Origin: Candidatus Altiarchaeota archaeon
GTDB taxonomy: Archaea; Altiarchaeota; Altiarchaeia; IMC4; SCGC-AAA252-I15
Length of the DNA stretch: 64,000 nt
Assembly (NCBI GenBank): GCA_043813075.1
Contig: JBDRLL010000036.1
Location: forward strand, 32,001-96,000
Direction: 5' to 3'
The notes below the pieces were generated by a model. The model worked only from the letters and a program-made list of their open reading frames with translations. It was not told where the DNA came from and searched no databases. Of this stretch, positions 7,070-44,676 are shown piece by piece (the first letter of the stretch is position 1; each line of letters opens with the position of its first letter). A program made the translations under genes and the position numbers.

Positions 7070-8569
7070 ATGGAACCCCCTGAAGCCAGACACATAGCCG
7101 GGATATACGTACTGCTGATAACCCTAATGGTCGCGTCATTCACCTACCCGCTGATAGCCGGCTCCATGATAACCTTCGACGCTGACGAGGCCAGCAAGGC
7201 GGTCATGGGGCTTGAGTTTGGGAGGGCTATGGAAGAGAGGGATATTGGGGATTTCATCTCAGCGACACAGGCTTCCGGCAGATACCTGTATCCGTTCGTG
7301 TATGCCTGGTGGACTGGATTGTTCTATAACCTCTTCGGTTTTAGCCTCGCAGTCTCGAGACTGACGAGCTGGACCATGCTGTTGTTCTGCGTGCCTGTGA
7401 CATACTGGATCGGCAGCATGATGGATGAAAGGAGGGGGTGGCTCGTAGGATCCGTTTCGGCGACGATGCTCCTAACCTCCCAGAAGATACTCCTTGTGGC
7501 GGGATTGTGCATGATAGAACTAACAGGACTCTTCTTCTCCCTCCTGACCATAGGAGCATACTTCAAGGCATTGAAGACAGGAAATAAAGCATGGTTCATT
7601 GGCGCCGGATTCTCAGCGGCCGTGACATTCTTCACTAAATACAATTTCGGGATGTACGTGATAGCCGCGATACTGTTGACGCAGGCGGCAAGGTATCTGA
7701 TCATATCCAGGAGGGAGGACAGCAGGACATTCTTGGGGGATACACTACTGTTTCTTATCCCCCTGTCCCTCTGCGCGATATGGCTCTACTTCTACTGGAT
7801 GGGTTTGTACAAGTTCCTCACCGCACAGCCGGTTAGGACCACACTATTGAGTTACGACAACATAATCTACTATCCGCGAGTCATATTCACGCAGTACACT
7901 GCATCACCAGTCATCTCGACAGTCATGCTAGTCTGCCTACTGCTTTCACTGAAGAGCCTGAGGAATCCGATGGTATTCTGCCTGACAGCATACTTCATCA
8001 TAGGTGTGGCCGCAATGTTCTTCAAACTGCAGAATGTCGTGCGATTCGTGCTGACCGTCGTTCCTGCGTTATACCTGTTGACAGGGCTTCAGGCGGCGCT
8101 ATTGTGCAGCAACAGGTCATATGGCAGGAAGCCGTTATACGCGATTGCGGTGGTAGTCTTGCTTTCAATCCCTGGGGTCATCGGCACTTTCGAAAGATAT
8201 CCCGGACTGTTGGACATGGAATACGAGGGACGGGCATCATTTTCGGAGATCCATGATTTTGTGGAGCCGCTGATAGCCAGTAACAAGCTGACGACCCTTG
8301 ACTGCGGTTGGGATCAGATGCCGCCAAAGGCTTTCAGATGGTACTGGTCGATAAGGAAGGGGTGGGATGTGAGGAGGATACGGGTGAGGTCCATGTGCAA
8401 GGATCCTCCGGAAGACATAGTGAAAGCGGATAGGCGGAGGGTTCCGGACAGTGAATACTACATAAGATTCAGGAAAACAGGATCCGGGGATAAGACACCG
8501 AGGGGATACGCTGTCATCAAGTCCACTGACATAGACGGGATACAGGTAACGGTTATGGGAAGGCGTTGA
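7070..8569 (+). CDS. ArnT/GT39-like (GT-C) membrane glycosyltransferase
   Basis: TM then DEA, YP loop, SRL, TKY; multi-pass. Confidence 0.75.
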   Translation: MEPPEARHIAGIYVLLITLMVASFTYPLIAGSMITFDADEASKAVMGLEFGRAMEERDIGDFISATQASGRYLYPFVYAWWTGLFYNLFGFSLAVSRLTSWTMLLFCVPVTYWIGSMMDERRGWLVGSVSATMLLTSQKILLVAGLCMIELTGLFFSLLTIGAYFKALKTGNKAWFIGAGFSAAVTFFTKYNFGMYVIAAILLTQAARYLIISRREDSRTFLGDTLLFLIPLSLCAIWLYFYWMGLYKFLTAQPVRTTLLSYDNIIYYPRVIFTQYTASPVISTVMLVCLLLSLKSLRNPMVFCLTAYFIIGVAAMFFKLQNVVRFVLTVVPALYLLTGLQAALLCSNRSYGRKPLYAIAVVVLLSIPGVIGTFERYPGLLDMEYEGRASFSEIHDFVEPLIASNKLTTLDCGWDQMPPKAFRWYWSIRKGWDVRRIRVRSMCKDPPEDIVKADRRRVPDSEYYIRFRKTGSGDKTPRGYAVIKSTDIDGIQVTVMGRR

Positions 8570-19412: not shown

Positions 19413-21095
19413 TTGATAGGAGTGGTATTGTATAAATACTCAATAACATATTCTCTCATGGACAGTGTTTGGCAGAGGCCATCCGTAATAATGCTTTTTT
19501 TGCTCCTCACCATAGCATCCACCCTCCCGCTCATACTTGAGATGGGGCATGTCACAAGGTTCCAGGACTCCCGCATGTACTTGTGGAGCATATGGTGGTG
19601 GCGTGACTCCATAGTCGGCAGATTCTCTAATCCATTCCACACAAGCCACATATGCTACCCCAACGAGCTTAGCCTGTACTTCCAGAACAGGGCGTCACTG
19701 ATGATGACGCTCGCCATCCCGTTGACGTTCATCTTCAGCGTCGAGTGGTCGTACAATATTATCGTCCTAGCGTCGTTCGTGCTGACAGGCTACGGAACGT
19801 ACCTGCTGTGCAGGCATGTCACTGGGAACGAGTACGCGTCCATCGTTGGCGGAAGCCTGTTTGCGTTCAGCGCCATAAGGTTCCACTGGGTGGACTTGGG
19901 GTGGGTGAACAACCTGAGCTGCCAGTGGATACCATTCTACGTGCTTTACCTGCTGAAGTCCATGAAGGATGGCGGTAGGATGAATAACCTGCTTGCCGGC
20001 GTTTTCCTCGCTTTCACCGCAATGACCCAGCTGGAACACCTGGTTTACGTAACACTCATAACAGCGGTCGTATGCGCGTACAGTGGGGTGAAAGCCTTCA
20101 GAAAAACCATTCCCGCATTCATGGTATTCCTGATAGTCTCTTCACCAGTGATGATACCAACTCTAATGGAGACATTCCCCCCAAAGTATGTGAACCCGTT
20201 AATGGAAGAAGTGGTGTCAGACTCTGCGGACGCGCTCGGCCTGCTCATCCCAGCCCCGGACAACCCGCTCTTCAAGAAATGCGTTCAAGGACTCTACAGC
20301 AGATTCAAGACAACACCCTATGTGAGGGTGTCGTTCGCAGGATACACGACACTAGCCCTGGCAGGATACTGCATCATGAAAAGGAGGGGTAGGGATACGT
20401 ACCTCTGGGCGACAGTCGCAGGACTATTCTACCTGCTCTCGCTGGGGCCAGTAGTCCACGTGCTTGGGGTGGAGACCGCCATCCCAGGAGCCTACAATAT
20501 TTTCAGGCTCCTTCCGGCCGTTGGCGCCATGCGTTTCGTGAACAGGTTCACGCTGATAACACAGATGGGGCTCGCCATACTGGCAGCCATGGGTTTCGCC
20601 AGGATTTCAGAGGGTATGGGCAGTAAGCGCCTTATTGCGCTAACGTGTATTGCACTCGCGTTCGGCCTACTTGAGTCTTCATCACCAGTAGACATGATGA
20701 AGGGTTACGGGAAAATGGGCGCATACACTGTTATGAACGAGGGTAGCGTACTCCACATACCATACAGGAGCAATGACGCCATGTATGTGGGAGTCATGCA
20801 TGGAAGGCCCCTGGTGAACTGTTTCCTCCCCAGAAAGCCGATAATATATCCTGAGGCAGGTAAGATACGGGCTCTCCAGCCGGTTTTGAACCGTATGCAG
20901 AATCCGGGGCGCTTAAGGGGGTATGAGAATGCTGGCGGAGACATGAGAGTACTGGAGGGGTACGACGTCAGATACGTTACGGTCGAGAAGTCATACTACA
21001 AGAACGGTACGGAAGACCTTAAGAGGCTTATGGATTCAATGGGTGCTACTATCCTGGGGGAAGACGATGATATCATGGTGTTTGGACTGCCCTAG
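19413..21095 (+). CDS. Multi-pass GT-C-like (YfhO-type) membrane protein
   Basis: NPF...YP, SYN, LSLGP, MRFVNRF; start likely at MDSV (about 19458). Confidence 0.65.
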   Translation: MIGVVLYKYSITYSLMDSVWQRPSVIMLFLLLTIASTLPLILEMGHVTRFQDSRMYLWSIWWWRDSIVGRFSNPFHTSHICYPNELSLYFQNRASLMMTLAIPLTFIFSVEWSYNIIVLASFVLTGYGTYLLCRHVTGNEYASIVGGSLFAFSAIRFHWVDLGWVNNLSCQWIPFYVLYLLKSMKDGGRMNNLLAGVFLAFTAMTQLEHLVYVTLITAVVCAYSGVKAFRKTIPAFMVFLIVSSPVMIPTLMETFPPKYVNPLMEEVVSDSADALGLLIPAPDNPLFKKCVQGLYSRFKTTPYVRVSFAGYTTLALAGYCIMKRRGRDTYLWATVAGLFYLLSLGPVVHVLGVETAIPGAYNIFRLLPAVGAMRFVNRFTLITQMGLAILAAMGFARISEGMGSKRLIALTCIALAFGLLESSSPVDMMKGYGKMGAYTVMNEGSVLHIPYRSNDAMYVGVMHGRPLVNCFLPRKPIIYPEAGKIRALQPVLNRMQNPGRLRGYENAGGDMRVLEGYDVRYVTVEKSYYKNGTEDLKRLMDSMGATILGEDDDIMVFGLP

Positions 21096-22095
21096 AGACA
21101 TCGTACTTCCACTTCCAACCGAAGTTTGCTGGAGCAGGCTTCATGCGTATCCTGACTTTATCCCCGACACCCATTTTAAGCCGCTTCTGGTGGGGTATGA
21201 AAATCTGCTTCCAATGCGTTAAAGGCTCTTCCGGAGCGCTGCTCAACAAGACATTATCTGACAAATGAGCTCTGAAGTACATGAGGCATCCGGTGAACTC
21301 GCCAGCCTCCCGTATCGTGAACTCCGCGTCTATCCTGATCTTCTTAGGGGGGTTATGAAGGTCGACCGAGAACGCGACCAAATCAGGGGAAAGCCGCCTG
21401 GTCCCAGGTCCTGCCTCAAAATTGCGTATCTTGTCAGGCACCTTGCCCACCACAGAATAGTCCACGCCATGCATCCGCTTCCAGAATCCGAGGCCCACTT
21501 CAGTGGTTTCGACGGGCGCTAACACCACGTCTATCCTCCCGGGGATTATGGCACCACCATCACGGAGGTATTTCTTCGCAGTGCGTATCTTGTCTGCTAT
21601 GCCCTCGTCTATTATCTCCATGCCGATGAGCTCAGATATTATGCAGTCCACTTTCGGTATGTTCAAGTCGTTAACATCAGTCCGCATGAACTCTATGGCC
21701 CCGATACCCTGTCTCTCGGCAGCCTTCCTGCCCACATCTATTATCTTAGCGGAGTCGACGGCGTATACTTTGCCTGCCCCCGCTTCTGCCGCATAGAAGG
21801 ACAGTATTCCCGTCCCAGTACCCAAGTCCAGCACAGTGTCGCCTTCCTTAACCACTTCGGATATCGCCTGCCTGAACGCCTCCAGGCGGACTTCGTCCAT
21901 GAGGAGCGTCCGGTGGACGTCCAGACTGTTCCAGTAGTATTGGGTGCCTGTGCCGCTCAGGATGCGGACCGTGAATATCTCGTCTATGAACGTGGTCGCG
22001 TCACTGACCCATAGCACAAAGTCCCTGTAGAAGAGCCGTATGAAACCCTTAACCCTCGATATAGCACGCAGTATGATGACACACCCCATATTCAA
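21073..22095 (-). CDS. Protein arginine N-methyltransferase (PRMT)-like SAM-dependent methyltransferase
   Basis: YYWNS...HRTLLMDEVR, VLDLGTGTGILS, ISELIGMEIIDEG (double-E loop), PLTHWKQ. Confidence 0.85.
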   Translation of the reverse strand: MNMGCVIILRAISRVKGFIRLFYRDFVLWVSDATTFIDEIFTVRILSGTGTQYYWNSLDVHRTLLMDEVRLEAFRQAISEVVKEGDTVLDLGTGTGILSFYAAEAGAGKVYAVDSAKIIDVGRKAAERQGIGAIEFMRTDVNDLNIPKVDCIISELIGMEIIDEGIADKIRTAKKYLRDGGAIIPGRIDVVLAPVETTEVGLGFWKRMHGVDYSVVGKVPDKIRNFEAGPGTRRLSPDLVAFSVDLHNPPKKIRIDAEFTIREAGEFTGCLMYFRAHLSDNVLLSSAPEEPLTHWKQIFIPHQKRLKMGVGDKVRIRMKPAPANFGWKWKYDVSRAVQTP

Positions 22096-22610
22096 ATCAC
22101 TATAACCCGATCCCTGCCGCCATCAATCTCCCTCAGCTTCATCCTCACAGTCTCCCTGCTTGACGTGGGTATCATACGGCCAACAAAGTCGGCTGATATG
22201 GGGTACTCCCTATGGCCCCTGTCGATGAGGACGGAAATCTTTATGCTGGACGGGCGACCGTACTCGATTATCGCGTCCATTGCGGCACGCATTGTCCGGC
22301 CGGTGTAGAGCACGTCGTCGACGATTATTATGTCTGCGCCGTCAACGTTGAACGGCATTACAGATTCGTTGCCTCCCTCGTAGTCTATGTCGTCCCTGAA
22401 TGGCCGGGTGTCCAGTTCACCGACCTTGAGTCTTACGCCGCTTATCTCCTTGATCTTGTCGGAGAGCCTCCCTGCCACGTATACGCCGCGCGTTTTTATC
22501 CCTATCAGGAATGTGTGGCTCAAGTCCGGGCTCTTGCGGACTATGCTGTACGCCATGTTGCTTATGCTATCCCGTATCTCCTGATCGTTCATTAGTACCG
22601 GCTCGGTCAT
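22092..22610 (-). CDS. pyrR: PyrR (pyrimidine attenuator/uracil phosphoribosyltransferase)
   Basis: GIKTRG, FRDD, VDDVLYTGRT, DRGHREYPI. Confidence 0.93.
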   Translation of the reverse strand: MTEPVLMNDQEIRDSISNMAYSIVRKSPDLSHTFLIGIKTRGVYVAGRLSDKIKEISGVRLKVGELDTRPFRDDIDYEGGNESVMPFNVDGADIIIVDDVLYTGRTMRAAMDAIIEYGRPSSIKISVLIDRGHREYPISADFVGRMIPTSSRETVRMKLREIDGGRDRVIVI

Positions 22611-22611
22611 G

Positions 22612-23268
22612 TTAAACCCTTTTTGTGCGTTCTATCAACTGGCGTATGACTTCGATCGCCTTGAGCGAATCCTTCTTGTCGACTATCAGGAAGGTGTTGT
22701 CGTAGCTTGAAGTCACCTCCACCAGGTTAATCCTGCTTCCCCCAAGCGCAGTCATCAATTGGGCGATGACTCCGGGTGTGTGCACTATCTCTTTGGGACT
22801 TGTTATTATTATCGCAGACAGGTCTTTTATTTTACTGTAAATATCATCCCCGCGTATCCCCATGTCACCCAAGTCCTCATCAGCGACCAATATCGTGGTG
22901 GTCCCTATGCCCTGTATCTTAACGTAAAACCCCCTGTTAGCGTCTATGACTGACGTGTATTTTGGTTCTTTGAACTCGGAATCGCCCTTCAGGTAAAGGA
23001 GGGCTATGTCATCCCTTAACTGAAGCCTGCTTTTACTGAAAAGGTCTCTGAGGGACTCGTCAACCTCGTTTGACATGATTCTAGCTGCAATCCGCTGTAT
23101 AGAAACCGCTATTGTGGATGTGCCCGCCTGGTGGCCGAGCCGTCTAACCACCTCCGGCTGTATGCGTCTGGCCAGGGAATGGTGGTTCACTATGCCCATC
23201 TGAAGAGCATTCATTATCCTAAGATCGCTTTTAAGAACCTCACCAACAACCTCAGATATTTGTTTCAT
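22612..23268 (-). CDS. ACT-domain putative transcriptional regulator
   Basis: N-terminal GIVNHHSLARRI helix; C-terminal TPGVIA...INLVEVTSSY ACT domain. Confidence 0.75.
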   Translation of the reverse strand: MKQISEVVGEVLKSDLRIMNALQMGIVNHHSLARRIQPEVVRRLGHQAGTSTIAVSIQRIAARIMSNEVDESLRDLFSKSRLQLRDDIALLYLKGDSEFKEPKYTSVIDANRGFYVKIQGIGTTTILVADEDLGDMGIRGDDIYSKIKDLSAIIITSPKEIVHTPGVIAQLMTALGGSRINLVEVTSSYDNTFLIVDKKDSLKAIEVIRQLIERTKRV

Positions 23269-23378
23269 ATTATATTAAAATGTATTATTTAAAACAAAAA
23301 AATGTTTTTTGTAATATATTGAACAATGTTATTATATTATTGTATTGTCTTATGAATTAAAAAAGGGGGCAATTCAAG
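23269..23378. promoter_or_regulatory. AT-rich divergent promoter region (ACT regulator / arg operon)
   Basis: Very AT-rich; AAAACA-N6-TGTTTT at 23291-23308; AACA-A-TGTT at 23322-23330. Confidence 0.55.
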
Positions 23379-24671
23379 ATGAGCGAAGAAGAGATGACGC
23401 TGGAAGAGATAATCAGGAAGATAGATGAGACTCCAAAACCAAAAGTAAAGAAAGCATGCATCGCATACTCGGGGGGCCTGGACTCCTGCCTTGGAGTGGA
23501 ATTCCTGAGGAGGGTCTACGGCGCCGAAGAGATAGTGGCGATAACACTCGATGTGGGGCAGGGCGAAGAGGAGATAAGAGACGCCAGTGAAAAAGCCAAG
23601 AAGCTGGGCATCAAGCCCATAATGATAGACGTCAAGGAAGAATTCACGGAAGTGTGGATGAAGAAGGCCATAATGGCGAACAGCAGCTACAACGGCTATC
23701 CAGTATCAACATCAATGACACGCCAGCTTGTCGCCGCAGTAGCGGCGGAAGAAGCGGTAAAACACGGGTGCGACGCAATACTCGAAGGATGCACTGGAAA
23801 AGGTAACGACCAGTACAGGATGCACAACGTCATCAAATACTTCGCGCCAGACATGGAGATACTACAGCCCGTCAGAGACTTCGACATGACACGACTGGAG
23901 GAGAACATCCTGGTGAAAGAATGGGGTGTGCCAGTCAACGAGCAGTTGACCGGCGGAGACGATAAGACAATGTGGTGCCGCAGCATCGCGTCAGGTGCAG
24001 TGGACTTGAACCAGCCATTAAATGACGACATATGGATGTGGCTAGTCCCCCCAGAGAAGGCGCCAGACAAGCCGGAGATAGTTGACATAGAATTCGAAAA
24101 GGGAGTCCCGGTATCGCTCAACGGGACCAGGAGGAAGCTGGGAGACCTTGTCATGGAACTCAACGTGATAGCAGGTAAAAACGGCGTAGGAAAGATAGAC
24201 ATGTTCGAGGACGGGATAATGAACATGAAGAGCAGGGAGATATACGAGGCGCCCGCCGCACACGTGATACTCAAACTACACAGCGACCTCGAACAATGGT
24301 GCCTCACAAAAGACGAAATCCAGTTCAAGAAGAGCGTGGACGCGAAATGGGCGTACCTCGTCTACCACGGGGAATGGTTCCACCCCCTCAAGGAAGACCT
24401 GGATGCGTTCATAGGGAAGAGCCAGGAGAACGTTAACGGAACGTACAGGGTGAAACTCTACAAAGGCAACATAGACATAGTGGAACGCCACTCCGACTCG
24501 GGACTGTTCAGCAAGGAGATGAGGTCCATAAAGACCAGGGGATTCGACCAGCGCTGGGCCATAGGGTCAACAAAAGTGGAGACCCTCCAGTGGATGATAA
24601 TGGCGAAAGCTGGTAGGACGACTAATGCCACCTCAAAAAAGAAGGTGGTTGTTGAGGTGAAAACGAAATAA
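23379..24671 (+). CDS. argG: Argininosuccinate synthase-like protein, divergent paralog
   Basis: AYSGGLDS, GCTGKGNDQYR, KSREIYEAP; atypical GGDDKTMWCRSIASG. Confidence 0.8.
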   Translation: MSEEEMTLEEIIRKIDETPKPKVKKACIAYSGGLDSCLGVEFLRRVYGAEEIVAITLDVGQGEEEIRDASEKAKKLGIKPIMIDVKEEFTEVWMKKAIMANSSYNGYPVSTSMTRQLVAAVAAEEAVKHGCDAILEGCTGKGNDQYRMHNVIKYFAPDMEILQPVRDFDMTRLEENILVKEWGVPVNEQLTGGDDKTMWCRSIASGAVDLNQPLNDDIWMWLVPPEKAPDKPEIVDIEFEKGVPVSLNGTRRKLGDLVMELNVIAGKNGVGKIDMFEDGIMNMKSREIYEAPAAHVILKLHSDLEQWCLTKDEIQFKKSVDAKWAYLVYHGEWFHPLKEDLDAFIGKSQENVNGTYRVKLYKGNIDIVERHSDSGLFSKEMRSIKTRGFDQRWAIGSTKVETLQWMIMAKAGRTTNATSKKKVVVEVKTK

Positions 24672-24759
24672 CATTAGTGTGGGGATTACGCCCCCCACCC
24701 ACCATTATTTTAGTGGGATGAACAAATAGGTTACACAAGGCCACGGGCCTAAAAAAAAG

Positions 24760-26271
24760 ATGGATAAATCAAAGAAGCTTTGGGGTGGACGGTTCCAGAA
24801 GAACCCGACGAAAAGCGTTGAAGACTTCCTCCAGTCCATAGAAGTGGACCGTGAGATGGTCTTGGAAGACATCTGGGGTAGCGAAGCCCACGCCATAATG
24901 CTGGCCAAACAGGGCATCATCGACAACAAGGACTTGAAGAAGATACTATACTGGCTGGAGAAGGCCCGTAAAGACTACCTGTCAGGCAAGTTCGTGCTGA
25001 CCACCGAGAACGAGGACGTCCACATGAACGTGGAACGATACCTTATCGACGGGGCAGGACCAGAGTACGGCGGCAAACTCCATACAGCCCGCAGCCGTAA
25101 CGACCAGGTTCTCGTGGACTCGAAGATGCACATACGCAAGAAGATAATAGGCGTGAAAAAACAGGTCATCGGACTGCAGAAGGTGTTCCTGAAGATCGCT
25201 GGGGAGAACCTGGAGACGCCGGTCCCAGGATACACGCACACTCAGGACGCGCAACCCATAACACTGGGCTTCTGGGCCACCGCCTACGTGAGCATGCTCA
25301 TGCGAGACCTACGCCGGCTGGACAACGCGTACGAGATAGTTGACATGAACCCGCTGGGAGCGTGCGCGCTCGCAGGCACTTCATTCAACACAGACCGAAT
25401 GCTAACCACAAAACTCCTCGGATTCAGCAAGGTGCACCACCACTCGCTAGACATAATAAGCAGCCGCGACTTCATCGCAGAGACACTGTGCGCGCTAACC
25501 CTCCTTATGAGCAGCCTGAGCAAGCTGGCGGAGGAGATGGTGTACTGGAGCACATACGAGTTCGGCATACTTGAACTCGACGACAGCTACACTGCAGGAA
25601 GCAGCATCATGCCGCAGAAGAAGAACCCTTGCATCGCAGAGCTCACGCGAGGCCGAACAGGACGGATTTACGGCTCGCTAATCCAGTTGCTGACGATGCT
25701 GAAGGGCATCCCGATGGGCTACAACCGGGACCTGCAGGAGGACAAGCCGCCACTATGGAATGCGTTCAAGGTGATAGAGGACACGCTGGACGTGACGACG
25801 GGCATGATAGACACCATGAAGGTGAACAAGGAGCGGCTTGCGGAGCTGGCTGGAGCCAACTTCACGACAGCAACAGAGCTCGCGAACCACCTGGTGCGGG
25901 AGCATGGGATAAGCTTCCGGGAATGCCACCACATAGTCGGAGACTTGGTGGGCACCCTGCACCGCAAGGGGAAGAATTTCATGGACTTCGACGAGGTTGA
26001 TGAAGTGCTGGGCAAACACGGGATAAAGATAGGCTACGACGAGATGCGGAACATCTTCGACCCGAAGAAGAACATATACACGTACAAGAGCCTTGGAAGC
26101 ACGTCCCCGAAGGAGGTCTCGAAGATGATGAAGATGTTCGAGAAGGATGTCATTGAAAAGGAGAAGATAACGCTAAAACAGGAGAACAGCATTAAAGACG
26201 CGGAGAAACTAACGCAAAAAACGGTAAATGCCGTGCTTGAAGGCGGAGACATATTAAAGATAAAGATATGA
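24760..26271 (+). CDS. argH: Argininosuccinate lyase
   Basis: LWGGRF, HTARSRNDQ, GSSIMPQKKNP, YNRDLQEDK. Confidence 0.97.
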   Translation: MDKSKKLWGGRFQKNPTKSVEDFLQSIEVDREMVLEDIWGSEAHAIMLAKQGIIDNKDLKKILYWLEKARKDYLSGKFVLTTENEDVHMNVERYLIDGAGPEYGGKLHTARSRNDQVLVDSKMHIRKKIIGVKKQVIGLQKVFLKIAGENLETPVPGYTHTQDAQPITLGFWATAYVSMLMRDLRRLDNAYEIVDMNPLGACALAGTSFNTDRMLTTKLLGFSKVHHHSLDIISSRDFIAETLCALTLLMSSLSKLAEEMVYWSTYEFGILELDDSYTAGSSIMPQKKNPCIAELTRGRTGRIYGSLIQLLTMLKGIPMGYNRDLQEDKPPLWNAFKVIEDTLDVTTGMIDTMKVNKERLAELAGANFTTATELANHLVREHGISFRECHHIVGDLVGTLHRKGKNFMDFDEVDEVLGKHGIKIGYDEMRNIFDPKKNIYTYKSLGSTSPKEVSKMMKMFEKDVIEKEKITLKQENSIKDAEKLTQKTVNAVLEGGDILKIKI

Positions 26272-27512
26272 GAGAAGGAGAAATGAAAATAGTACTAGCA
26301 TATTCAGGGGGATTGGACACGAGCGTATGCATAAAATGGTTGCAGGAGAGATACGATGCAGAAGTCATAACACTGACTCTGGAGTTGGGGCAGGAGATAG
26401 AGGACCTCGACGCCATAGAGAAGAAGGCCAAGGACTTCGGCGCGATAAAGACGTACAGCATAGACGCGAGAAGGGAGTTCGTGCACGAGTACATAAACCC
26501 TGCAATAAAGGCCAACGCGCTATACGAGGGGAAATACCCCGTGAGCACTGCGATAGGAAGGCCGCTTATCGCGAAGAAGATGGTTGAGATAGCTGAGAAG
26601 GAGCGTGCCGACGCCGTAGCCCACGGGTCAACTGGCAAGGGGAACGACCAGGTGCGTTTCGACGTCGCAGTCCAATCACTGAACCCGGAATTGAGGGTTA
26701 TAGCGCCGGTCAGGGAATGGCCTATGACGCGTGAGGAGGAGATAAACTACGCTAAAAAACACGGGATACCGGTGCCGGTGACAGTGAAAGACCCCTACAG
26801 TTACGACATAAACCTGTGGGGCAAGAGCGCTGAGGCAGGACCCCTTGAAGACCCCATGTTCGAGCCCACTGACGCGTCGTTCTGGTGGACTGTTAAGCCT
26901 GAGAAGGCCCCCAACAAGCCGGAATACGTCGAACTAGAGTTCGAGGACGGCATACCCATAGGCCTAAACGGGAGGATAATGGATGAGGTCGAGCTGATAA
27001 AATCATTGAACGAGACCGCTGGAAAACACGGTGTGGGAAGGATAGACATGATGGAAGACCGGCTTGTCGGCATAAAGAGCCGTGAAACCTACGAGTGCCC
27101 GGCCGCAATCACCATACTGGAGGCCCACAAGGAGCTTGAACGCCTGACGCTCACCATAGAGCAGAACCTGTTCAAACCCAGGATAGAATCCAAGTGGACT
27201 GAGATGGCCTACTTCGGGCTATGGTTCGAGCCTTTGATGAAGGACTTGGAGGCTTTCATAAACGAGACCCAGAAGAACGTCTCAGGGAAGGTCAAGATGA
27301 AGCTCTACAAGGGTTCTGCGACAGTAGTCGGCCGTGAGAGCGCGCACTCCCTATACCATCAAGGCCTTGCGACATACGATAAGGGAGACGCCTACGACCA
27401 CACCGCCGCGGAAGGGTTCATAAAGATATGGGGTCTACCGTCCGTTGTCGCGAACAAGCGGAACAAGAGCGTTGCCGGAAAAAAGAAGAGGAGGAGGGTG
27501 AAGGAGGAATAG
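26268..27512 (+). CDS. argG: Argininosuccinate synthase (canonical)
   Basis: LAYSGGLDTS, HGSTGKGNDQVRF, YSYDINLWGKSAE, GIKSRETYE. Confidence 0.97.
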   Translation: MREGEMKIVLAYSGGLDTSVCIKWLQERYDAEVITLTLELGQEIEDLDAIEKKAKDFGAIKTYSIDARREFVHEYINPAIKANALYEGKYPVSTAIGRPLIAKKMVEIAEKERADAVAHGSTGKGNDQVRFDVAVQSLNPELRVIAPVREWPMTREEEINYAKKHGIPVPVTVKDPYSYDINLWGKSAEAGPLEDPMFEPTDASFWWTVKPEKAPNKPEYVELEFEDGIPIGLNGRIMDEVELIKSLNETAGKHGVGRIDMMEDRLVGIKSRETYECPAAITILEAHKELERLTLTIEQNLFKPRIESKWTEMAYFGLWFEPLMKDLEAFINETQKNVSGKVKMKLYKGSATVVGRESAHSLYHQGLATYDKGDAYDHTAAEGFIKIWGLPSVVANKRNKSVAGKKKRRRVKEE

Positions 27513-27516
27513 AGTT

Positions 27517-28992
27517 ATGGTTCATGAGGATGCCTGTAGAACAAAAAAACGAATGATACTATACGGTATCCTCACTTTCTCAGCTATTCTGATGCCTATT
27601 ATAACGCATCAACTGGAATCTGAGTTTGAATTAAACTTTATTGGAAACAACATCTCAAGGAACTACATTGCGTGCTCCCTTTTTTCCATAGGGATAATAG
27701 TATTTGGTTACTTAGAGCTAAGAGGAAGATGGAAGAAACCGTTAGAGGAGAATATACCGATCATACTCGCAGTATTGGTGTTGATTAATTACTGCATCCT
27801 ATGGACTTCAGCCACCGCGAAAGGCCATGACTACGACTGCTTTGAGATAGCAGCTAAAAGCTTTTTAGCGGGGAAAAACCCCTATGCGGGATGCTATCTG
27901 TACCCTCCCCTATTCGTAGAGAGCATGGCGGCCGCATACAAGTCGATTGATTACCTCGCCTCGACTACCGGCATGAACATTACTGGAGAAGGCATCTGGG
28001 AGCTTATGTTTTATTTGTTTCAATGCCTTCAGTTTGTATCCTACATCACAGCATACTACCTGTGTTATATATTCGCCCGTAAGGCCTCACTGAAGGGGAT
28101 GCATGCATCCATAATCGTCACCATATTATTCCTGTTTAACTATCCGGTGAACAACAACATGTTTGGCAGGCAAATCAACCTGATGATACTGGACGCCATC
28201 CTCATAGCCATCCTGCTTGCCGAAAAGCACCCATTCCTAAGCGGACTATCACTGGCTATCGGGGGGAACATCAAGTATTACCCATTCCTACTCCTATACC
28301 CGTGGGGCATGGCAAAGAGGATGCGGATACTTGCGTACAGTGGCGTATTGATTACCGTAATTTTCCTGATAACAAGCAGCTTTGGCAGTGACCTGAACAC
28401 CTGGTACCGGTGGAGGGATTACGTGGGCATCTACAGTAAAAACATCGCATACAATGATGTCGGGCTTTACGCAATCACTTACAACATATCCAGGGCCATC
28501 ACGATTGTTTCTGGAATGAACAGGAACTTTTCCCACATACTGCATGAAGCATCATACGGGCTGTTGGTTGCCTTGACCATAACCTGGTTTTCAACACGTT
28601 TTATTGCCCGGAAAAAAGCATCCGAGAATCTCCCAAAACCATTAGGAGACAGGTTCAGATTGTTCGGGGATTCCATAGACGCAGTATGCATTGGCCTCTT
28701 GATATTCCCGGAAGTCTTAAGCCATCACTATGTTTTTACGATACCCGCGGTAATATGGGCTATTGCTGTCAGAGGGGATAGGAGGGGGAGTACTGTATTG
28801 AGCGCCATCCTAATGTTTTGGATGATAGACACCAATATTTTACTGGTAGACTACAGTAGAATAGTCGGGCTTCTTATCGTATTGCATTTAACATCGCCAA
28901 AAGCGGTTCCAAAACAGATTGACGCCCCCTATTTCACACAAAACATGGGCCCAACACCCACTGATAGCGACACCTCTCGCGATAGTGACTAA
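27517..28992 (+). CDS. GT87/DUF2029-like membrane glycosyltransferase
   Basis: HDY...NPY...YLYPP, QIN, IKYYP, HHY; visibly more AT-rich than neighbours. Confidence 0.75.
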   Translation: MVHEDACRTKKRMILYGILTFSAILMPIITHQLESEFELNFIGNNISRNYIACSLFSIGIIVFGYLELRGRWKKPLEENIPIILAVLVLINYCILWTSATAKGHDYDCFEIAAKSFLAGKNPYAGCYLYPPLFVESMAAAYKSIDYLASTTGMNITGEGIWELMFYLFQCLQFVSYITAYYLCYIFARKASLKGMHASIIVTILFLFNYPVNNNMFGRQINLMILDAILIAILLAEKHPFLSGLSLAIGGNIKYYPFLLLYPWGMAKRMRILAYSGVLITVIFLITSSFGSDLNTWYRWRDYVGIYSKNIAYNDVGLYAITYNISRAITIVSGMNRNFSHILHEASYGLLVALTITWFSTRFIARKKASENLPKPLGDRFRLFGDSIDAVCIGLLIFPEVLSHHYVFTIPAVIWAIAVRGDRRGSTVLSAILMFWMIDTNILLVDYSRIVGLLIVLHLTSPKAVPKQIDAPYFTQNMGPTPTDSDTSRDSD

Positions 28993-33960: not shown

Positions 33961-35421
33961 GTGAGCACATTGCATGAGGAAGTCAACGCCCAACAGGCCC
34001 AGGCAAGACTGAAGGAGGTGGTTGGCTCGCTACCCCCAGGATATGAAGGGAGGATCAGGGCGCACTCCGCGAGGGCCAGGCAGATATTCAGGAACCCAGA
34101 TCACGTGATGCTACAGGTGTCCGGATACTACAGCATGCTCGCTAAGGAAGATGCGAACGACTACTGGATAAATACGGGGGAAACAGCGATAAACACCCTT
34201 TTTGACATCGCCTCGATGCGGGGGGTCTCAGACCCTGACGGCGCATGGAGGGCGCTAACCGAGACATACCCGCCAGTACAAGCGCATGGGAGAGTAGATT
34301 CCCCATTCGACTCCAACGCCAAACACTTCATGCCGATACTGGAGGCCGCGCCCGACAAGGAGGATATGATACGGAGGATTGTGGCTTTCGGAAGGCTCAG
34401 GCTGCCGTGTTCGAGAACACTCTTAACGAACTTCGACGCTATAGGACTCGCCTACGCGAGAGACATGAGCACCGAGGACAAGCTCGAGACTATGATGGAC
34501 GCGACAGGCCAGAGGGTCCTAGACAGGGTTGGGGAGCTTAGGATGCATCGGGGCATGGGGGTGGACTTTCTGAGGGCTGCTGCAGACCGCCCTGAAGCAG
34601 TCGAACTTTACTTCAAGGTAAGGGATTCAGGATACAATCCCGTCAGGGAGACGGACAGTCTGCTTGCCGCAAGGAAGAACGTGTCTCTGGTAGTCAGCCC
34701 GGAGACGGGGCTGATAGTGGTGGGGGACATGGCCAGGGGGCATGAGCAGATTGCAGATGATTTTGGCATAGACCCTGCAAGCTATGAATACAGGAAGTAC
34801 TTGAAGGGCAGCATACCCAGGAGGAGTAGGAGAGGTCCGTCTGAGCCGACAGTCAGGTTCGGCTTTGGATTCTACGAGCTTCCCGAGGACGTGCACAGGA
34901 AGAGGTATGCGGCGACAGACGCGGTGAGGGGGTGCCTGATACACATGGCGGAACAGGGATTTGACCCCAACTATGTCGTAAAGGTTTCTGACGCCGCCTT
35001 TTTTTCGAGATGCGGGTACCGCTTAGGGAATCTGATAGACGAAGACTCGTTTTTCGGGAACTTTAATGTTGACCCGACTGATTGGAGGGGTTCTGGGGAC
35101 TGGACCTGCATGTCAGGCAACGGGATAGACATATGGCGTTACAACATGAGCGACGACAGGGTGCTGGGAAACACGGTGATAGTGAGTGGGAAAAACGTTT
35201 ACACTGGAGACGTGCCAGTCAGCACACTGGGAGGCAGTGTCGAATTCAGCACATACTGTGCCGCACACACCAGGGAAGACGGCTCGATAAGCCTTTCAGG
35301 ACGCATACCGAAACACGAGAGCCACGCGCCAAGCCCATCAGGAGTAGCAGACGTGATGCGTAGATTCGACCCAAATCTGAAGATAGAAGTGTCGAAGGTC
35401 ACTGGGAAAAGAGTCAATTAA
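33961..35421 (+). CDS. Hypothetical protein, tandem paralog 2
   Basis: 486 aa; GTG start immediately after the TGA of paralog 1, same frame. Confidence 0.8.
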   Translation: MSTLHEEVNAQQAQARLKEVVGSLPPGYEGRIRAHSARARQIFRNPDHVMLQVSGYYSMLAKEDANDYWINTGETAINTLFDIASMRGVSDPDGAWRALTETYPPVQAHGRVDSPFDSNAKHFMPILEAAPDKEDMIRRIVAFGRLRLPCSRTLLTNFDAIGLAYARDMSTEDKLETMMDATGQRVLDRVGELRMHRGMGVDFLRAAADRPEAVELYFKVRDSGYNPVRETDSLLAARKNVSLVVSPETGLIVVGDMARGHEQIADDFGIDPASYEYRKYLKGSIPRRSRRGPSEPTVRFGFGFYELPEDVHRKRYAATDAVRGCLIHMAEQGFDPNYVVKVSDAAFFSRCGYRLGNLIDEDSFFGNFNVDPTDWRGSGDWTCMSGNGIDIWRYNMSDDRVLGNTVIVSGKNVYTGDVPVSTLGGSVEFSTYCAAHTREDGSISLSGRIPKHESHAPSPSGVADVMRRFDPNLKIEVSKVTGKRVN

Positions 35422-37313
35422 ACAAGCCTTATGGAATCCAGGTTCCTTGGGGCACTCGCCTCAAAACCGAACATGTCGTAGAGTGTTGAAGCCAGGTTAT
35501 TCGCCTTGCTAGCCTCGCCGTGCACGACCACAACCCGCTTAGGCTTCGGACTGACCTTCTTGCAGTACCCGAGCAGCTGCCTCCTGTCCGCGTGACCAGA
35601 GAAACCGTCGACAGTCTCGACACGAAGCTTAACCTTCAACGCCTTAGTCCTGCCATCATGATCCTCAATGGGGATCTCATGAAGCCCGTTCTGAAGACGC
35701 CTGCCCAGACTGCCCTCAGCCTGGTAACCGACGAAAGCCAGCGTGTTGTTCGGGTTCTCCGCGAAAGCCTTGAAGTACTCCACGCTCGGGCCGCCAGTCA
35801 TCATGCCGGAAGTCGCTAGTATGACGCAAGGATCCTCGCTGGCTATTATGTCGGGACGCCTCTTATGCTCCACCCGCTCAAACCCGTCAACCAGGAAGGG
35901 GTTATACCCGTTGAATACCCTGTGCTTGATGTGCTTCTTCAAGTACTCCGGATAGGAGGTATGGATTGCAGTAGCCTCCCATATCATGCCGTCCAGGTAA
36001 ACCGGCACCTCAAGCTCGTTGAAACGATAAGCAGCCTCCAGAACCATCATGACCTCCTGGCTCCTGCCGACACTGAACACTGGGATAAGAGTCTTACCCC
36101 CCTTAGCGACAGTCTCCTGAAGTATCGAAAGCAGCGCCTGCTCAGCGTCACGCCTCTTCGGCTGAGCATCATAACGACCGCCGTAAGTCGACTCGATTAT
36201 CATGGTCTCCACCCGAGGGAAATCGAAGTTAGCGGCCTCAAGCAGACGGGTGTCTCCGAACTTGAAGTCGCCGGTATACACCATGTTGTGCAACCCCTCG
36301 CCTATATGGAAGTGGCAGACGCTTGAGCCGAGAATATGACCTGCATTATACAGGGTCAAGTGTATGTCAGGCGTGATGTCAGCAACCTCCTCGTACTCGA
36401 GGGGTATGGTGTGCTTTATCATCTCCCTCACCTCCTTACTACCGAAGGGAAGTTCATTCTGACCCTTAACGCCTATCTCAACAGCGTCAAGCACGAGGAG
36501 CATCATCAAGTCCCTCGTCGGCTCAGTACAGTATATCGGGCCGTCGTAGCCGTATTTGAACAGGTACGGTAGGAAACCGCAGTGATCCAGGTGAGCGTGC
36601 GATATTACAACCGCATCCAACTCAGATATCGCCAGCTTCGCAGCCCGGAAGTCAGGGAAACGCTCGTTATTCTGGGCTGCCACATTGATTCCGCAGTCCA
36701 CGAGCACGTTGCTCTCCGGCGTCTGGAGCAGTATGCTGGAACGACCCACCTGCTGGGCTCCGCCCAACGGGGTTATCCGTATCCAATCGCATTCGGCGTC
36801 AGGCTTCCTGTATATCTTCTTGCCAACACCCTTGAGTATCTTATGCCTCTCCTCACGGTTCTCGAAAAGCATCTTCCGGATGCTCCTCACAGTCTCGGAC
36901 TCTATTGGAGGCTTCCTCAAAAGCTTAGGAGTCCAACGAGTCTTACGCGTTATCTCCTCTAGAGTGCTACCATGCTTCCCGATAACCAGGCCAAGCTTCT
37001 CAGCCTCAATCCGTACTTCGCCAAAGAACTCGTCAAACTCTATGTCGACTATGTTAGCCTCAGGAGGTATTATCCCCTCTATTATCTTCTTCGCCTCCAC
37101 AGGATCCATCAGCGAGTCGGGGGTAGACCTCACGATAACCCTCTTCTTAAGGGAAGTAGCCAGGTTACGGACCTCACTGCTGTTGTCAACGAAGAACTGC
37201 ATGTCGCCGGTGTACAAGACGACCTTAGGCCCTTCAACATCAACCTTGACTATCTTGCCGGGTGGGGCTGTCTCCTCAACAATCTTCTGTATTTCCTTAA
37301 ACTCCATTCTCAA
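35418..37313 (-). CDS. Beta-CASP ribonuclease aCPSF1 (FttA) with KH domains
   Basis: KH GxxG (GKHG), SHAHLDH, AGHILG, FSGHAD; adjacent to psmB. Confidence 0.97.
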   Translation of the reverse strand: MRMEFKEIQKIVEETAPPGKIVKVDVEGPKVVLYTGDMQFFVDNSSEVRNLATSLKKRVIVRSTPDSLMDPVEAKKIIEGIIPPEANIVDIEFDEFFGEVRIEAEKLGLVIGKHGSTLEEITRKTRWTPKLLRKPPIESETVRSIRKMLFENREERHKILKGVGKKIYRKPDAECDWIRITPLGGAQQVGRSSILLQTPESNVLVDCGINVAAQNNERFPDFRAAKLAISELDAVVISHAHLDHCGFLPYLFKYGYDGPIYCTEPTRDLMMLLVLDAVEIGVKGQNELPFGSKEVREMIKHTIPLEYEEVADITPDIHLTLYNAGHILGSSVCHFHIGEGLHNMVYTGDFKFGDTRLLEAANFDFPRVETMIIESTYGGRYDAQPKRRDAEQALLSILQETVAKGGKTLIPVFSVGRSQEVMMVLEAAYRFNELEVPVYLDGMIWEATAIHTSYPEYLKKHIKHRVFNGYNPFLVDGFERVEHKRRPDIIASEDPCVILATSGMMTGGPSVEYFKAFAENPNNTLAFVGYQAEGSLGRRLQNGLHEIPIEDHDGRTKALKVKLRVETVDGFSGHADRRQLLGYCKKVSPKPKRVVVVHGEASKANNLASTLYDMFGFEASAPRNLDSIRLV

Positions 37314-37382: not shown

Positions 37383-38024
37383 TTATGCGGCCTTCGAGGC
37401 TAGATCCTCGACTTCCTTGTCACTGTATCTCTTGAAACCGTCCTTAGTGATCGCAATCAAATCCATGCCGTCCCCTGAAGCCGAGTCACGGGCCATCGCA
37501 CTCTTCAACGCCTTCAAAGCGACAGTCAGATTCTCGTCGACCGTCTTATCCTCGCTGAACTCCCGCTCCAAGACGCCGTACGCCATCGGACTCCCGCTTC
37601 CTGTTGCAGCCATCTTCTCCTCGATAAGGCCTCCAATCGGGTCGAGCGTGAACAACTTCACATCTTCCCCGTCATATCCGCCTATCAGCAGCTGCACCAG
37701 GTAGGGGAATATCTTATTGCCCTGAAGAATGTTGCTCAATAGCACTGATATGGCCTGGGAGCTCATCTTCTCGCCGTTGTTCATCTCATAGAGCTTTGAC
37801 TCCGCCTGTATGAGCCTCATAAGGCTTTCAGCGTCACCTACACTCCCCGCGACAGTCGCTCCGACGGTATCGTTTATGTTGAACGACTTCTGCGCCCTCT
37901 TGCTGGCTATGAAGTGGCCCCAGCTAGCCCTCCTGTCTGTAGCGAAAACTATTCCGTCACTGCAGACTAGTCCTATTGTAGTAGTCCCCTTAAATTGCTT
38001 TGATTCCAAAGAAACCGCCTCCAT
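37383..38024 (-). CDS. psmB: Proteasome beta subunit
   Basis: Propeptide ...KG|TTT, GSVGDA, TGSGS, RDSASG. Confidence 0.97.
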   Translation of the reverse strand: MEAVSLESKQFKGTTTIGLVCSDGIVFATDRRASWGHFIASKRAQKSFNINDTVGATVAGSVGDAESLMRLIQAESKLYEMNNGEKMSSQAISVLLSNILQGNKIFPYLVQLLIGGYDGEDVKLFTLDPIGGLIEEKMAATGSGSPMAYGVLEREFSEDKTVDENLTVALKALKSAMARDSASGDGMDLIAITKDGFKRYSDKEVEDLASKAA

Positions 38025-42849: not shown

Positions 42850-44676
42850 TCACTTGATGTAGCCTATCTCCCTGAGCCTGCTTTTGATGTCCTCCTGCAG
42901 GGGGGTTTCGACCAGGCTCCTGTTGGAAAGCGTCTCGTATGTTGGAATGCGGGTGATATTCCCATCACCATGCCTGCCTGGCTTGAGCATCTTAAGCACG
43001 ACACTACCATCCATGTCTGATGCGGGAGGAAGCCCCAGCACATGCAGGAGTGTGGGCGTGAAATCGAGCACAGACGCCCTGCACGTCGCATTCCTCCTGA
43101 ACGGTGGTCCTGCCGCTATGAGAACCCCGTCCAACTGATGAATAGCGAACGTGTCGTTTGACCCTTCAATAGACGACGGATCAACAGGCTCGAATCCATG
43201 GTCAGACAGGATTATGAACGACGTGCCCTCACCCGCACCATCTATGAATTCGCCTATAAGCTCGTCATAAAACTCATAGTACAGGGGTATGGTATCCCTG
43301 AAGGCCATCACCTCGTTCTCGTTGAAAACACGGCCCTCATACGCGCTAGTGTTCATGTAGCCCCAGAAATAGTGCATCAATATGTCCGCGCCCTCGAGAT
43401 AGACGAACAATACGTCAGGCTCGCGAGTACGGTACAGGTGCTTGGCGGACTCTGCGTAGCTGACGTCCAGACTGTACGAGAGCTTAATCCTGTTCAACTG
43501 GCTGGTGTGAACGTGGTCTGAGACGTCCTCGCTGTAGCCGTATCCGAGAGCATCCTCGTGATAAAAACGCTTGACCGCCGTGAGGCCCACCCTCGGCGGA
43601 GTCAAAACAAACCCGCTGAGCTCGCCACTCAACTGTTCAGGGTATGTTATGCTACCAAGATTGCTCACGCTCCTGTTCGTATGCCACGGAAGATACACGA
43701 GGTGGTCTGACACCATGAAACCGTTCACCTCCTCTGCAGGCCACGTGCTCCACAGGCCCACGAAACCGACGGAGACGTTATGCTCGCTGAGGATGTTCCA
43801 TAGTGCCTTGGTCTTACGGAAGGATGATGTTGGGGGGGTCGTGTGAGCCCTGACCAGGTTGTCTTCAAGCACGTATAGCGTGTATTCTGTGATGCCGTGC
43901 TTGTCAGGTGTTTTGCCAGTGAATATGGAGGTCCATACTACGGGGGATGCTATGTACCCGGCATACTCCATCGATGTGAAGTTGCATGACACGCCGAGGT
44001 CAACAAGCTTTTTAATGTTGGGGAGCCTGCCTTCCTCCATAAGAGGCTGCAGCAGCCTCCATGTGGCGCCGTCAAAGCCTATGATTATGAACTTGCCGGA
44101 GCCCACCGCAGTCGTGCCAGACCCCGTAGGAGGTTTGTCCACATCATCCTTCAGGGGGATTGAGAGGACGACCGCTATGACCACGATTACCTTGAGCATC
44201 AGCGAGAGACGTGAACCCAGGGAACGTTCCGTAAGCCCGAGGAAGTCACGCATAAGGTTCAGTAAAGCAGGTACCAGGATGAGGAACAGCAGGAATAGGA
44301 GGTACATGAGGGATAGTGAGGCGGCGATTGGCGAACCCATAAGCTCCAGTGAGGATGCGGTGACCATGATGCTCACCATGGTAAAATTAATTACAAAAAC
44401 AGGGTGGCATCCAGCCGCCCACCCCAGCAACCTTAGGAGAAGCGAAATCACGGCATAAGACAACAAGCCGAGGACGCAGCCGATAAGAGCATAGGTCGAC
44501 AAGAGCCTTAATATCACTCCGGACGTGTCGCCGGAATACCAGCCCACATTCAGTATTATGCCAGCATCCAGGAGATAGATGAGCAATGCAACGGGAAACA
44601 TGAGGGACACTATTCCAGGCAGAAATGACTTGCACGCGAACTTCAATGCTGACGTTAAGAAGTCAGGAAACTTCAT
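42850..44676 (-). CDS. Alkaline phosphatase/nucleotide pyrophosphatase-superfamily protein with N-terminal TMs
   Basis: IGFDGATW, SPVVWTSIFTG, HGI, SDHGF; ends LREIGYIK. Confidence 0.85.
   Translation of the reverse strand: MKFPDFLTSALKFACKSFLPGIVSLMFPVALLIYLLDAGIILNVGWYSGDTSGVILRLLSTYALIGCVLGLLSYAVISLLLRLLGWAAGCHPVFVINFTMVSIMVTASSLELMGSPIAASLSLMYLLFLLFLILVPALLNLMRDFLGLTERSLGSRLSLMLKVIVVIAVVLSIPLKDDVDKPPTGSGTTAVGSGKFIIIGFDGATWRLLQPLMEEGRLPNIKKLVDLGVSCNFTSMEYAGYIASPVVWTSIFTGKTPDKHGITEYTLYVLEDNLVRAHTTPPTSSFRKTKALWNILSEHNVSVGFVGLWSTWPAEEVNGFMVSDHLVYLPWHTNRSVSNLGSITYPEQLSGELSGFVLTPPRVGLTAVKRFYHEDALGYGYSEDVSDHVHTSQLNRIKLSYSLDVSYAESAKHLYRTREPDVLFVYLEGADILMHYFWGYMNTSAYEGRVFNENEVMAFRDTIPLYYEFYDELIGEFIDGAGEGTSFIILSDHGFEPVDPSSIEGSNDTFAIHQLDGVLIAAGPPFRRNATCRASVLDFTPTLLHVLGLPPASDMDGSVVLKMLKPGRHGDGNITRIPTYETLSNRSLVETPLQEDIKSRLREIGYIK

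Follow-up and report, generated by a model that had tools for sequence, protein, structure and literature searches.

Background

Protein arginine methyltransferases (PRMTs) and the regulation that they exert by methylating arginine are discussed mainly for eukaryotes, and bacterial relatives of PRMTs are mentioned in comparative-genomics reviews. The eukaryotic type I PRMTs, namely, PRMT6, PRMT1/Hmt1, PRMT3, PRMT8, CARM1, and PRMT2, are built of a Rossmann domain and a β-barrel, carry motif I, a post-I acidic residue, a double-E loop, and a THW loop, and form an arm-mediated homodimer. We describe here a gene whose product shares all of these features, the homodimer being only predicted for it. 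The gene is at positions 21073..22095 on the minus strand of a 64,000-nucleotide stretch of a Candidatus Altiarchaeota archaeon (assembly GCA_043813075.1, contig JBDRLL010000036.1, positions 32,001 to 96,000), and this whole stretch is referred to below as the window. The protein is probably an active enzyme of the PRMT family, that is, a dimeric, S-adenosylmethionine (SAM)-dependent arginine-guanidino methyltransferase. It differs from the eukaryotic type I enzymes in that it is only about 22-26% identical to them in structural alignments, has a shorter dimerisation arm and an extra N-terminal amphipathic helix, has Leu and Ile at two positions that are mostly Met in relatives, and branches away from the CARM1 rows in trees, and in that no RGG-rich candidate substrates were found in its genome. 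A prokaryotic SAM-dependent methylation of the arginine guanidino group, which is the activity proposed here, is already described for SznE/StzE of streptozotocin biosynthesis, but SznE/StzE is reported to act on free L-arginine and belongs to a natural-product gene cluster (PMC11705231). It resembles the window protein in the reaction proposed for the latter.

Family, motifs and fold of the window protein

The open reading frame (ORF) is exactly the one to which a sequence-only reading of the window had assigned a eukaryote-type PRMT; the strand, which that reading had not given, is minus. The list of ORFs with their translations gives a product of 340 amino acids from a TTG start, and an alternative ATG two codons inside the ORF (22087-22089) gives a 338-residue form that is the database protein P0001. 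All the PRMT motifs that the sequence-only reading had quoted are found in this translation, and in the order in which it had listed them. The N-terminal PRMT helices, residues 53-70 (21886..21939, minus strand, as are all the features of the gene given below), align to PRMT6 and contain YYWNS (53-57), VH (60-61), and LLMDEVR (64-70), with H61, D67, and R70 among them. They are followed by the SAM-binding motif I, VLDLGTGTGILS, at residues 88-99 (21799..21834), which contains residues that are invariant in the alignments, and by VYAVD at residues 110-114 (21754..21768), in which D114, the post-I acidic residue, stands in a stretch aligned to VYAVE of PRMT6. The double-E loop, ISELIGMEIIDEG, at residues 153-165 (21601..21639), aligns to PRMT6 without a gap, and its two glutamates, E155 and E164, are separated by nine positions. 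The THW loop, SSAPEEPLTHWKQ, at residues 285-297 (21205..21243), aligns to ATHWKQ of PRMT6.

When the protein was compared with the chain sequences of the PDB by phmmer, 68 distinct sequences matched at E ≤ 0.001. Among the 60 matches listed, 59 bear an arginine-methyltransferase name and the exception, 8rbk_A, is called 'MGC151858 protein'. The best matches were PRMT6 (E 1.8e-26) and PRMT1/Hmt1 (about 1e-25), and these were followed by PRMT3, CARM1, and PRMT8; chance would not give a likeness of this degree. In the HMMER alignment E155 and E164 fall on both double-E glutamates of PRMT6 and THWKQ falls on THWKQ, with no gaps. The Pfam family PRMT_C (PF22528), which describes the C-terminal β-barrel, is matched by residues 193-322 (21130..21519) with 43.4 bits against a cut-off of 27. 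By its Pfam domains, which are PRMT_C and Rossmann methyltransferase domains, its PDB sequence matches, and its predicted fold, the protein is a member of the PRMT family.

The AlphaFold2 model, which was built from a 42-row alignment (A1), has a mean predicted local distance difference test (pLDDT) score of 92.5 and a predicted template modelling (TM) score of 0.89. The sequence-only reading had proposed a Foldseek comparison and had staked its assignment on the presence of the PRMT β-barrel. All the matches that Foldseek listed from the PDB are PRMTs (PRMT6, 2, 3, 8 or CARM1), with query-normalised TM scores of 0.69-0.75, and the barrel is there, not only in the Pfam match but also as strands in residues 187-334 of the model and in the superposition on PRMT6. 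The VIA-align superposition on mouse PRMT6 (4c03_A) has a Z score of 31.4 and a root-mean-square deviation of 2.3 Å over 291 aligned residues, which span model residues 41-335, and all 50 entries listed by VIA-align are PRMT6, CARM1 or PRMT2. The region of the YFxxY-type motif is modelled as helices at lower confidence (block pLDDT 62-82).

When two copies were predicted as a complex the score was 0.74, whereas the best of three controls scored 0.00. In a calibration, 20 of 30 proteins solved as pairs of the same chain reached this mark, as did 1 of 23 that had been solved as single chains. At least 50% of the contacts are common to the runs, and the pLDDT of the partner is at least 82. In the predicted dimer residues 200-220 of the arm (the shortened dimerisation arm is about residues 198-223, 21427..21504) pack against the partner at its residues 56-65, 95-100, and 121-129, and this packing of the arm on the Rossmann domain is the arrangement of the solved PRMT dimers. 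A head-to-tail, arm-to-Rossmann homodimer is the most likely form of the protein on this prediction. The prediction may, on the other hand, reflect the likeness to solved PRMT dimers or the memory of the model rather than independent evidence.

Conservation of the active site

To read conservation, 22 proteins of the Altiarchaeota-type clade (P0001-P0020, P0213, and P0214) were aligned with the four nearest proteins outside the clade and with 12 outside rows. D67, R70, D90, G92, G94, G96, D114, E155, E164, H294, and W295 are each present in 22 of 22 clade members, T293 is present in 21 of 22, and H61 in all 21 rows that reach that position. E155 and E164 are also retained in 12 of the 12 outside rows, and D90, G92, G94, and G96 are invariant in all 42 rows of A1. 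The active site is conserved to this extent among clade members that are 45-68% identical overall to the window protein, and an invariant site at such identity points to purifying selection on a working site. In addition, there are no stops or frameshifts in nine genomic copies of the gene.

The clade also has features of its own. An N-terminal extension of about 45 residues is kept in the Altiarchaeota-type relatives and is missing from the bacterial rows of A1. In the model, residues 3-34 of this extension (21994..22089) form one long helix by DSSP, which among the A1 rows belongs to the Altiarchaeota clade only. Residues 7-27 are strongly amphipathic with a basic face (hydrophobic moment 0.67-0.69, mean hydrophobicity near zero), and no 19-residue segment reaches transmembrane hydrophobicity, the maximum being 1.31. 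The helix is outside the predicted dimer interface. At position 64, 17 of 21 clade rows have Leu and 4 have Met, while 11 of 12 outside rows have Met; at position 166, 14 of 22 clade rows have Ile and 9 of 12 outside rows have Met. These two positions presumably correspond to M48 and M155 of rat PRMT1, which influence the product type.

Proposed function

In the mechanism that we propose, the Rossmann domain would bind SAM and the methyl group would be transferred from SAM to a terminal guanidino nitrogen of arginine, while the double-E loop (E155 and E164) and the THW loop (T293-H294-W295) would hold the guanidinium. The working form would be the head-to-tail homodimer. The enzyme is part of a distinct prokaryotic clade centred on one Altiarchaeota family, and its gene is at the end of an ACT-pyrR operon. 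We infer that the protein is active, that arginine is the acceptor, and that the substrate is arginine in protein rather than free arginine.

Several observations weigh against this proposal. When the whole genome was searched by crude six-frame calling, no RGG-repeat or GAR-type protein was found among 6850 ORFs of at least 60 amino acids. The best 30-residue windows hold 5-7 RG/GR dipeptides and are mostly in short, probably spurious ORFs. Thus, the classic eukaryotic class of RGG substrates seems to be missing from the genome. The single histone-fold gene that was found codes for a product of 65 residues, counted from the start that matches the Pfam model, and this product is tailless. The N-terminal YFxxY-type motif, a helix motif which in PRMTs presumably closes over SAM, is changed in the window protein: the stretch aligned to it is Y54-W55-N56-S57-L58, in which the first aromatic pair is retained and the last Tyr is lost. 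Relative to the bacterial rows of A1, seven residues are missing from the dimerisation arm. Two conserved methionines that flank the active site presumably mark type I as opposed to type II or III product specificity; the window protein has Leu64 and Ile166 at the aligned positions, and therefore the product type, be it monomethylarginine, asymmetric dimethylarginine or symmetric dimethylarginine, is not readable from the sequence. The arginine-biosynthesis genes adjacent to the gene leave room for a free-arginine substrate. Lastly, no paper on a prokaryotic PRMT-family enzyme turned up in a full-text library from which subscription journals are largely absent. As to expression, no RNA run was listed for window positions 21000-23300, while 0.07-0.21 of the words sampled there are present in three DNA runs.

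Gene neighbourhood and free arginine as a possible substrate

The methyltransferase gene is the last of a run of three genes on the minus strand. The first gene of the run (22612..23268) codes for an ACT-domain protein (Pfam ACT_7, 30.4 bits against a cut-off of 27) and the second (22092..22610), directly upstream of the methyltransferase gene, codes for a pyrR-type phosphoribosyltransferase. The gap between these two genes is 1 nucleotide, and the TGA of pyrR shares two bases with the TTG of the methyltransferase gene, whose ATG is 2 nucleotides past that stop codon. The translational coupling of the methyltransferase gene to pyrR is real in this genome. Divergent from this run, on the plus strand at 23379..27512, are an argG-like gene, argH, and argG, as assigned by NCBIfam.

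The same arrangement was seen to various extents in the loci of seven relatives. The pyrR gene adjoins the methyltransferase gene in five of the seven, the ACT gene is present in four, and arg genes are beside the methyltransferase gene in six. Four loci (L012, L013, L017, and L018) have the ACT-pyrR-methyltransferase run beside the argG-like gene and argH; in L017 the contig ends within the 3' flank of argH and argG is beyond view. In L015 pyrR and the methyltransferase gene are beside argH-argG, in L014 the methyltransferase gene is directly beside argH-argG, and in L016, which is in genome G008, it has none of these neighbours. Genome G012, which is of the same genus as the carrier G002, has kept ACT-pyrR and the argG-like/argH/argG genes and has no methyltransferase gene; the two ORFs found in its place, of 210 and 140 amino acids, are unrelated and belong to no Pfam family. 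Since the locus of G012 is intact but lacks the methyltransferase gene, the arg genes are the ancestral backbone and the methyltransferase gene is an accessory at the end of the operon.

These neighbours bear on the first alternative to the proposed activity on protein, namely, that the enzyme is a guanidino N-methyltransferase tied to the arg genes, which acts on free L-arginine or a metabolite derived from it and makes N-omega-methylarginine as a metabolite or regulator. The gene is at most three genes from argH in six of the seven loci, and directly beside it in L014; the operon begins with a gene for a protein with an ACT, that is, an amino-acid-sensing, domain; the crude ORF scan of the genome found no RGG-type substrates; and SznE/StzE provides a bacterial precedent for free-arginine guanidino methylation (PMC11705231). 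But adjacency to arg genes after the loss of intervening genes is expected from descent alone, the intact backbone in G012 marks the arg genes as ancestral context, and in L016 the gene is in an unrelated neighbourhood. Furthermore, the fold matches are all to protein-modifying PRMTs. The functional link of the methyltransferase to arginine metabolism is weak, and we consider this alternative unlikely.

Some other observations were made on the neighbouring genes. Two argininosuccinate synthase paralogues flank argH (24760-26271), a divergent one at 23379-24671 (TIGR00032, 369.6 bits) and a canonical one at 26268-27512 (533.9 bits). Both paralogues are present in L012, L013, L018, and G012; in L017 the first is present before the contig ends, and a single argG is found in L014 and in L015. 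PyrR is known mainly as a bacterial RNA-binding attenuator, and here a PyrR-type regulator/uracil phosphoribosyltransferase passes an NCBIfam equivalog cut-off in an archaeal genome (NF003549, 186.5 bits against 138). The ACT protein has 218 amino acids with the ACT domain at the C-terminus and an N-terminal part that matches no family; its gene is divergent from the arg genes, and the protein may be an amino-acid-sensing regulator. On the other side of the methyltransferase gene is a convergent ORF of 560 amino acids (19413-21095, plus strand), which has 23 nucleotides in common with the methyltransferase gene at the 3' ends of both. Its product matches no Pfam or NCBIfam family and has, as judged by eye, many hydrophobic stretches. 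Among the seven loci compared, this ORF adjoins the methyltransferase gene only in L017, which is from the same genus.

Possible drift to another acceptor or loss of catalysis

A second alternative is that the protein has kept the PRMT fold and has drifted to another acceptor, such as lysine, an N-terminus, a nucleic acid or a small molecule, or that it is a non-catalytic remnant. Leu64 in place of the Met of most relatives, the altered YFxxY-type motif, and the clade-specific N-terminal amphipathic helix could be taken as signs of such a drift, and the gene is dispensable in that it was not found in 12 of the 20 other genomes of the family. This alternative is nevertheless improbable, more so than the one above. 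All 22 clade members retain the SAM-binding residues, the double-E glutamates, H294, and W295, and 21 of them retain T293, which would be difficult to account for in an enzyme that no longer bound a guanidinium and used SAM. In addition, the nine genomic copies without stops or frameshifts do not look like those of a remnant.

Distinction from PrmA

The sequence-only reading had foreseen that the protein would be mis-annotated as PrmA, the ribosomal protein L11 methyltransferase, and this is what has happened to its relatives. The Altiarchaeota orthologue P0213 has the source name '50S ribosomal protein L11 methyltransferase', and the same L11 name is on relatives in Methanosarcina mazei, Ignavibacteria, Algibacter, and Deltaproteobacteria. 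PrmA, like the window protein, has a class I SAM-dependent Rossmann domain, and it is there that the common Pfam match is found: the Pfam PrmA model is matched with 40 bits against a cut-off of 22, by residues 76-184, which align to positions 153-257 of a profile 296 positions long. The match is therefore to the generic Rossmann part only, and the N-terminal part of the PrmA profile is unmatched. This Pfam model also matches in 14 of 14 control genomes and is therefore unspecific, and the occurrence of such an unspecific Rossmann match on the family would explain why the relatives are mislabelled. In the NCBIfam scan of the methyltransferase none of the 25 families shown reached its cut-off, and the prmA equivalog TIGR00406 failed with 32.9 bits against 183.15. 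Together, the Pfam PRMT_C model and the NCBI prmA cut-off cleanly separate the PRMT family from PrmA at the level of sequence.

That the window protein is itself PrmA is suggested by the passing Pfam score and by the L11 source names of P0213, P0043, P0272, and P0228, but it is contradicted by the failed NCBI prmA model, by the partial and unspecific Pfam match, and by a C-terminal half that is a PRMT barrel, and this identity is extremely improbable.

Prokaryotic relatives beyond Altiarchaeota

The sequence-only reading had implied that such a protein is rare outside eukaryotes, and this was not borne out, since PRMT_C proteins occur in many prokaryotic lineages and several close relatives already bear the JGI name 'protein arginine N-methyltransferase 1' or 'type I protein arginine methyltransferase'. 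In a cluster library that includes eukaryotes, the window protein was matched by 8942 cluster representatives at E ≤ 0.001, of which 4307 reached ≤ 1e-10 and 233 reached ≤ 1e-30, with eukaryotic PRMT clusters among the matches. A profile search with A1 gave 807 proteins at E ≤ 1e-10 among 7992 scored. By their source names these matches include proteins of Methanosarcina mazei (P0272, on a 4.07-Mb contig), Algibacter, Ignavibacteria, Bacteroidota, and Deltaproteobacteria. The relatives of P0272 are in Methanoculleus sediminis (L025, 64%), Tepidisphaeraceae, Planctomycetaceae, Actinomycetes, and Acidimicrobiia. PRMT_C clusters of the ESM Atlas come from Acidobacteriota, Actinomycetota, Myxococcota, Gemmatimonadota, Pseudomonadota, and Verrucomicrobiota and are mostly auto-named 'L11 methyltransferase'. 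Judged from these sequences, there are many such genes in bacteria and a few in archaea, usually misnamed and in some cases auto-labelled as PRMT.

The distribution of these relatives is patchy, as is that of the window gene. In a sample of 301 genomes from the phylum of Methanoculleus, PRMT_C was found in the centre genome only, while a 301-genome sample of the phylum of Pelagisphaera gave eight matches at E ≤ 0.001, of which six were above the cut-off. PRMT_C was found in none of 14 model genomes, among them Methanocaldococcus jannaschii, Haloferax volcanii, Sulfolobus acidocaldarius, and Methanosarcina acetivorans. A search for related loci from the single protein gave two distant bacterial loci, in Pelagisphaera and Synergistales. 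The proteins compared, namely, P0272 of M. mazei, that of Methanoculleus sediminis (L025), and bacterial proteins from Bacteroidota, Ignavibacteria, Paceibacteria, Deltaproteobacteria, Verrucomicrobiota, and Actinomycetota, have the same pair of domains and the same catalytic motifs as the window protein, and they are likewise misnamed 'L11 methyltransferase' and likewise accessory. They differ from the window protein in that they are 28-39% identical to it and in that, among the rows of A1, the N-terminal helix is present only in the Altiarchaeota clade.

Several of the relatives are of unusual build. P0094, a Deltaproteobacteria protein of 637 amino acids named 'radical SAM protein', has its PRMT-like part at 342-635, and P0061, a Pseudonocardia protein of 431 amino acids, combines a PRMT-like domain with a Rieske domain (PF00355). 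These fusions hint at peptide or metabolite modification in some bacterial clades. Some bacteria carry paralogous or tandem PRMT_C forms: the Pelagisphaera genome G062 has two separate PRMT_C genes (C309:995-1393 and C135:7383-7811), and G653 has an open frame of 701 amino acids with two PRMT_C stretches. An ESM Atlas cluster of 123 members, 67% of them from Archaea and most commonly from Candidatus Thorarchaeota, is close to the window protein in language-model features (0.95). PRMT_C is not among the three families listed for this cluster, and it is a possible Asgard relative and a lead only.

Host and distribution

The window is part of a 1.80-Mb assembly of 41 contigs that is 89% complete. 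In agreement with the archaeal host of the sequence-only reading, it carries archaeal genes for information processing and for the cell surface: a Pfam scan of 36 further ORFs identified FttA/aCPSF1 (35418-37313), a proteasome subunit (37383-38024), the primase small subunit (60017-61168), and AglB/STT3 (54038-56932). The nearest relatives of the methyltransferase that have a name are labelled 'Candidatus Altiarchaeota archaeon' and are 63% and 51% identical to it. The gene is genuinely archaeal and inherited, as shown by the archaeal genes of the window and by the orthologues in conserved gene order. One might suspect that the gene is contamination, from a eukaryote or a bacterium, that was binned with an archaeal genome, since eukaryotes are the best-known carriers of the family and the assembly has 41 contigs at 89% completeness, but this is contradicted by synteny and has a negligible probability, because the gene is inside at least 64 kb with archaeal information-processing genes (the database copy is on a contig of 120,302 bases), overlaps its upstream neighbour by 2 nucleotides, and has orthologues with the same neighbours in independently assembled relatives.

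Within the phylum PF22528 was found in 9 of 61 genomes, the window genome included, and all nine are of one family, in which 8 of the 20 other genomes carry it; a search of 40 genomes from the eight remaining families of the phylum found none. By genus the carriers are 1 of 1 genome in g1, 1 of 2 in g2, 5 of 5 in g4, and 1 of 4 in g8, and PF22528 was not found in seven other genera of the family, many genomes of which are incomplete. The methyltransferase gene is therefore an accessory gene with a patchy pattern of presence and absence.

Elsewhere in the window a large surface-glycosylation region is suggested by Pfam matches to unusually densely placed membrane glycosyltransferases (four PMT_2, one GT87, and one AglB/STT3), encoded at 7070-8569, 27517-28992, 44663-46375, 50485-52104, 54038-56932, and 58186-60030, together with sulfatase and phosphodiesterase genes. 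An Rfam scan of the whole window found no family at the gathering score.

Relation to eukaryotic PRMTs and meaning

Trees were built from chosen subsets of roughly 296 proteins and rooted at the midpoint, and their eukaryotic rows are CARM1 only, with no Asgard rows. In the FastTree tree (61 rows, 317 columns) the window protein is in a clade of 13 rows (support 99) inside a clade of 17 rows (98). In a quick IQ-TREE run under LG+G4 (40 rows, 310 columns) it is in a clade of 15 rows (99), which is sister (87) to a group of Bacteroidota, Ignavibacteria, and M. mazei proteins. Its own Altiarchaeota clade has a Shimodaira-Hasegawa-like support of 99. The eukaryotic rows, which are three CARM1 sequences in the FastTree tree and two in the IQ-TREE tree, group (98 and 93, respectively) with a different set that includes Paceibacteria-type proteins, and the FastTree run flags long branches meeting there. 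Against the PDB sequences the Paceibacteria-type protein P0024 scores 180.6 bits (PRMT8), whereas the best match of the window protein scores 96.5 bits. We read these trees as placing the window protein in a separate prokaryotic clade that did not come by a recent transfer from a eukaryote. In the phylogenetic sense, therefore, the term eukaryote-type of the sequence-only reading does not fit, given the separate prokaryotic clade and the lower score against eukaryotic PRMTs than that of the Paceibacteria-type relative.

A wider and speculative interpretation is that prokaryotes hold several old PRMT clades and that the Altiarchaeota clade is a working archaeal system for protein-arginine methylation, in which the enzyme would be targeted by its basic amphipathic N-terminal helix and would methylate a protein that binds RNA or has a regulatory role, for instance the PyrR to whose gene the methyltransferase gene is translationally coupled. 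We give this interpretation a low but not trivial chance of being correct. If it is true, a PyrR-type substrate would echo the preference of eukaryotic PRMTs for RNA-binding proteins, and eukaryotic PRMTs would descend from such old prokaryotic enzymes and would not be a eukaryotic invention. A conserved and apparently active archaeal PRMT would be a tractable entry to the question whether archaea methylate protein arginine, and why, and its prokaryotic relatives, mostly named 'L11 methyltransferase', bear on the origin of the eukaryotic PRMTs.

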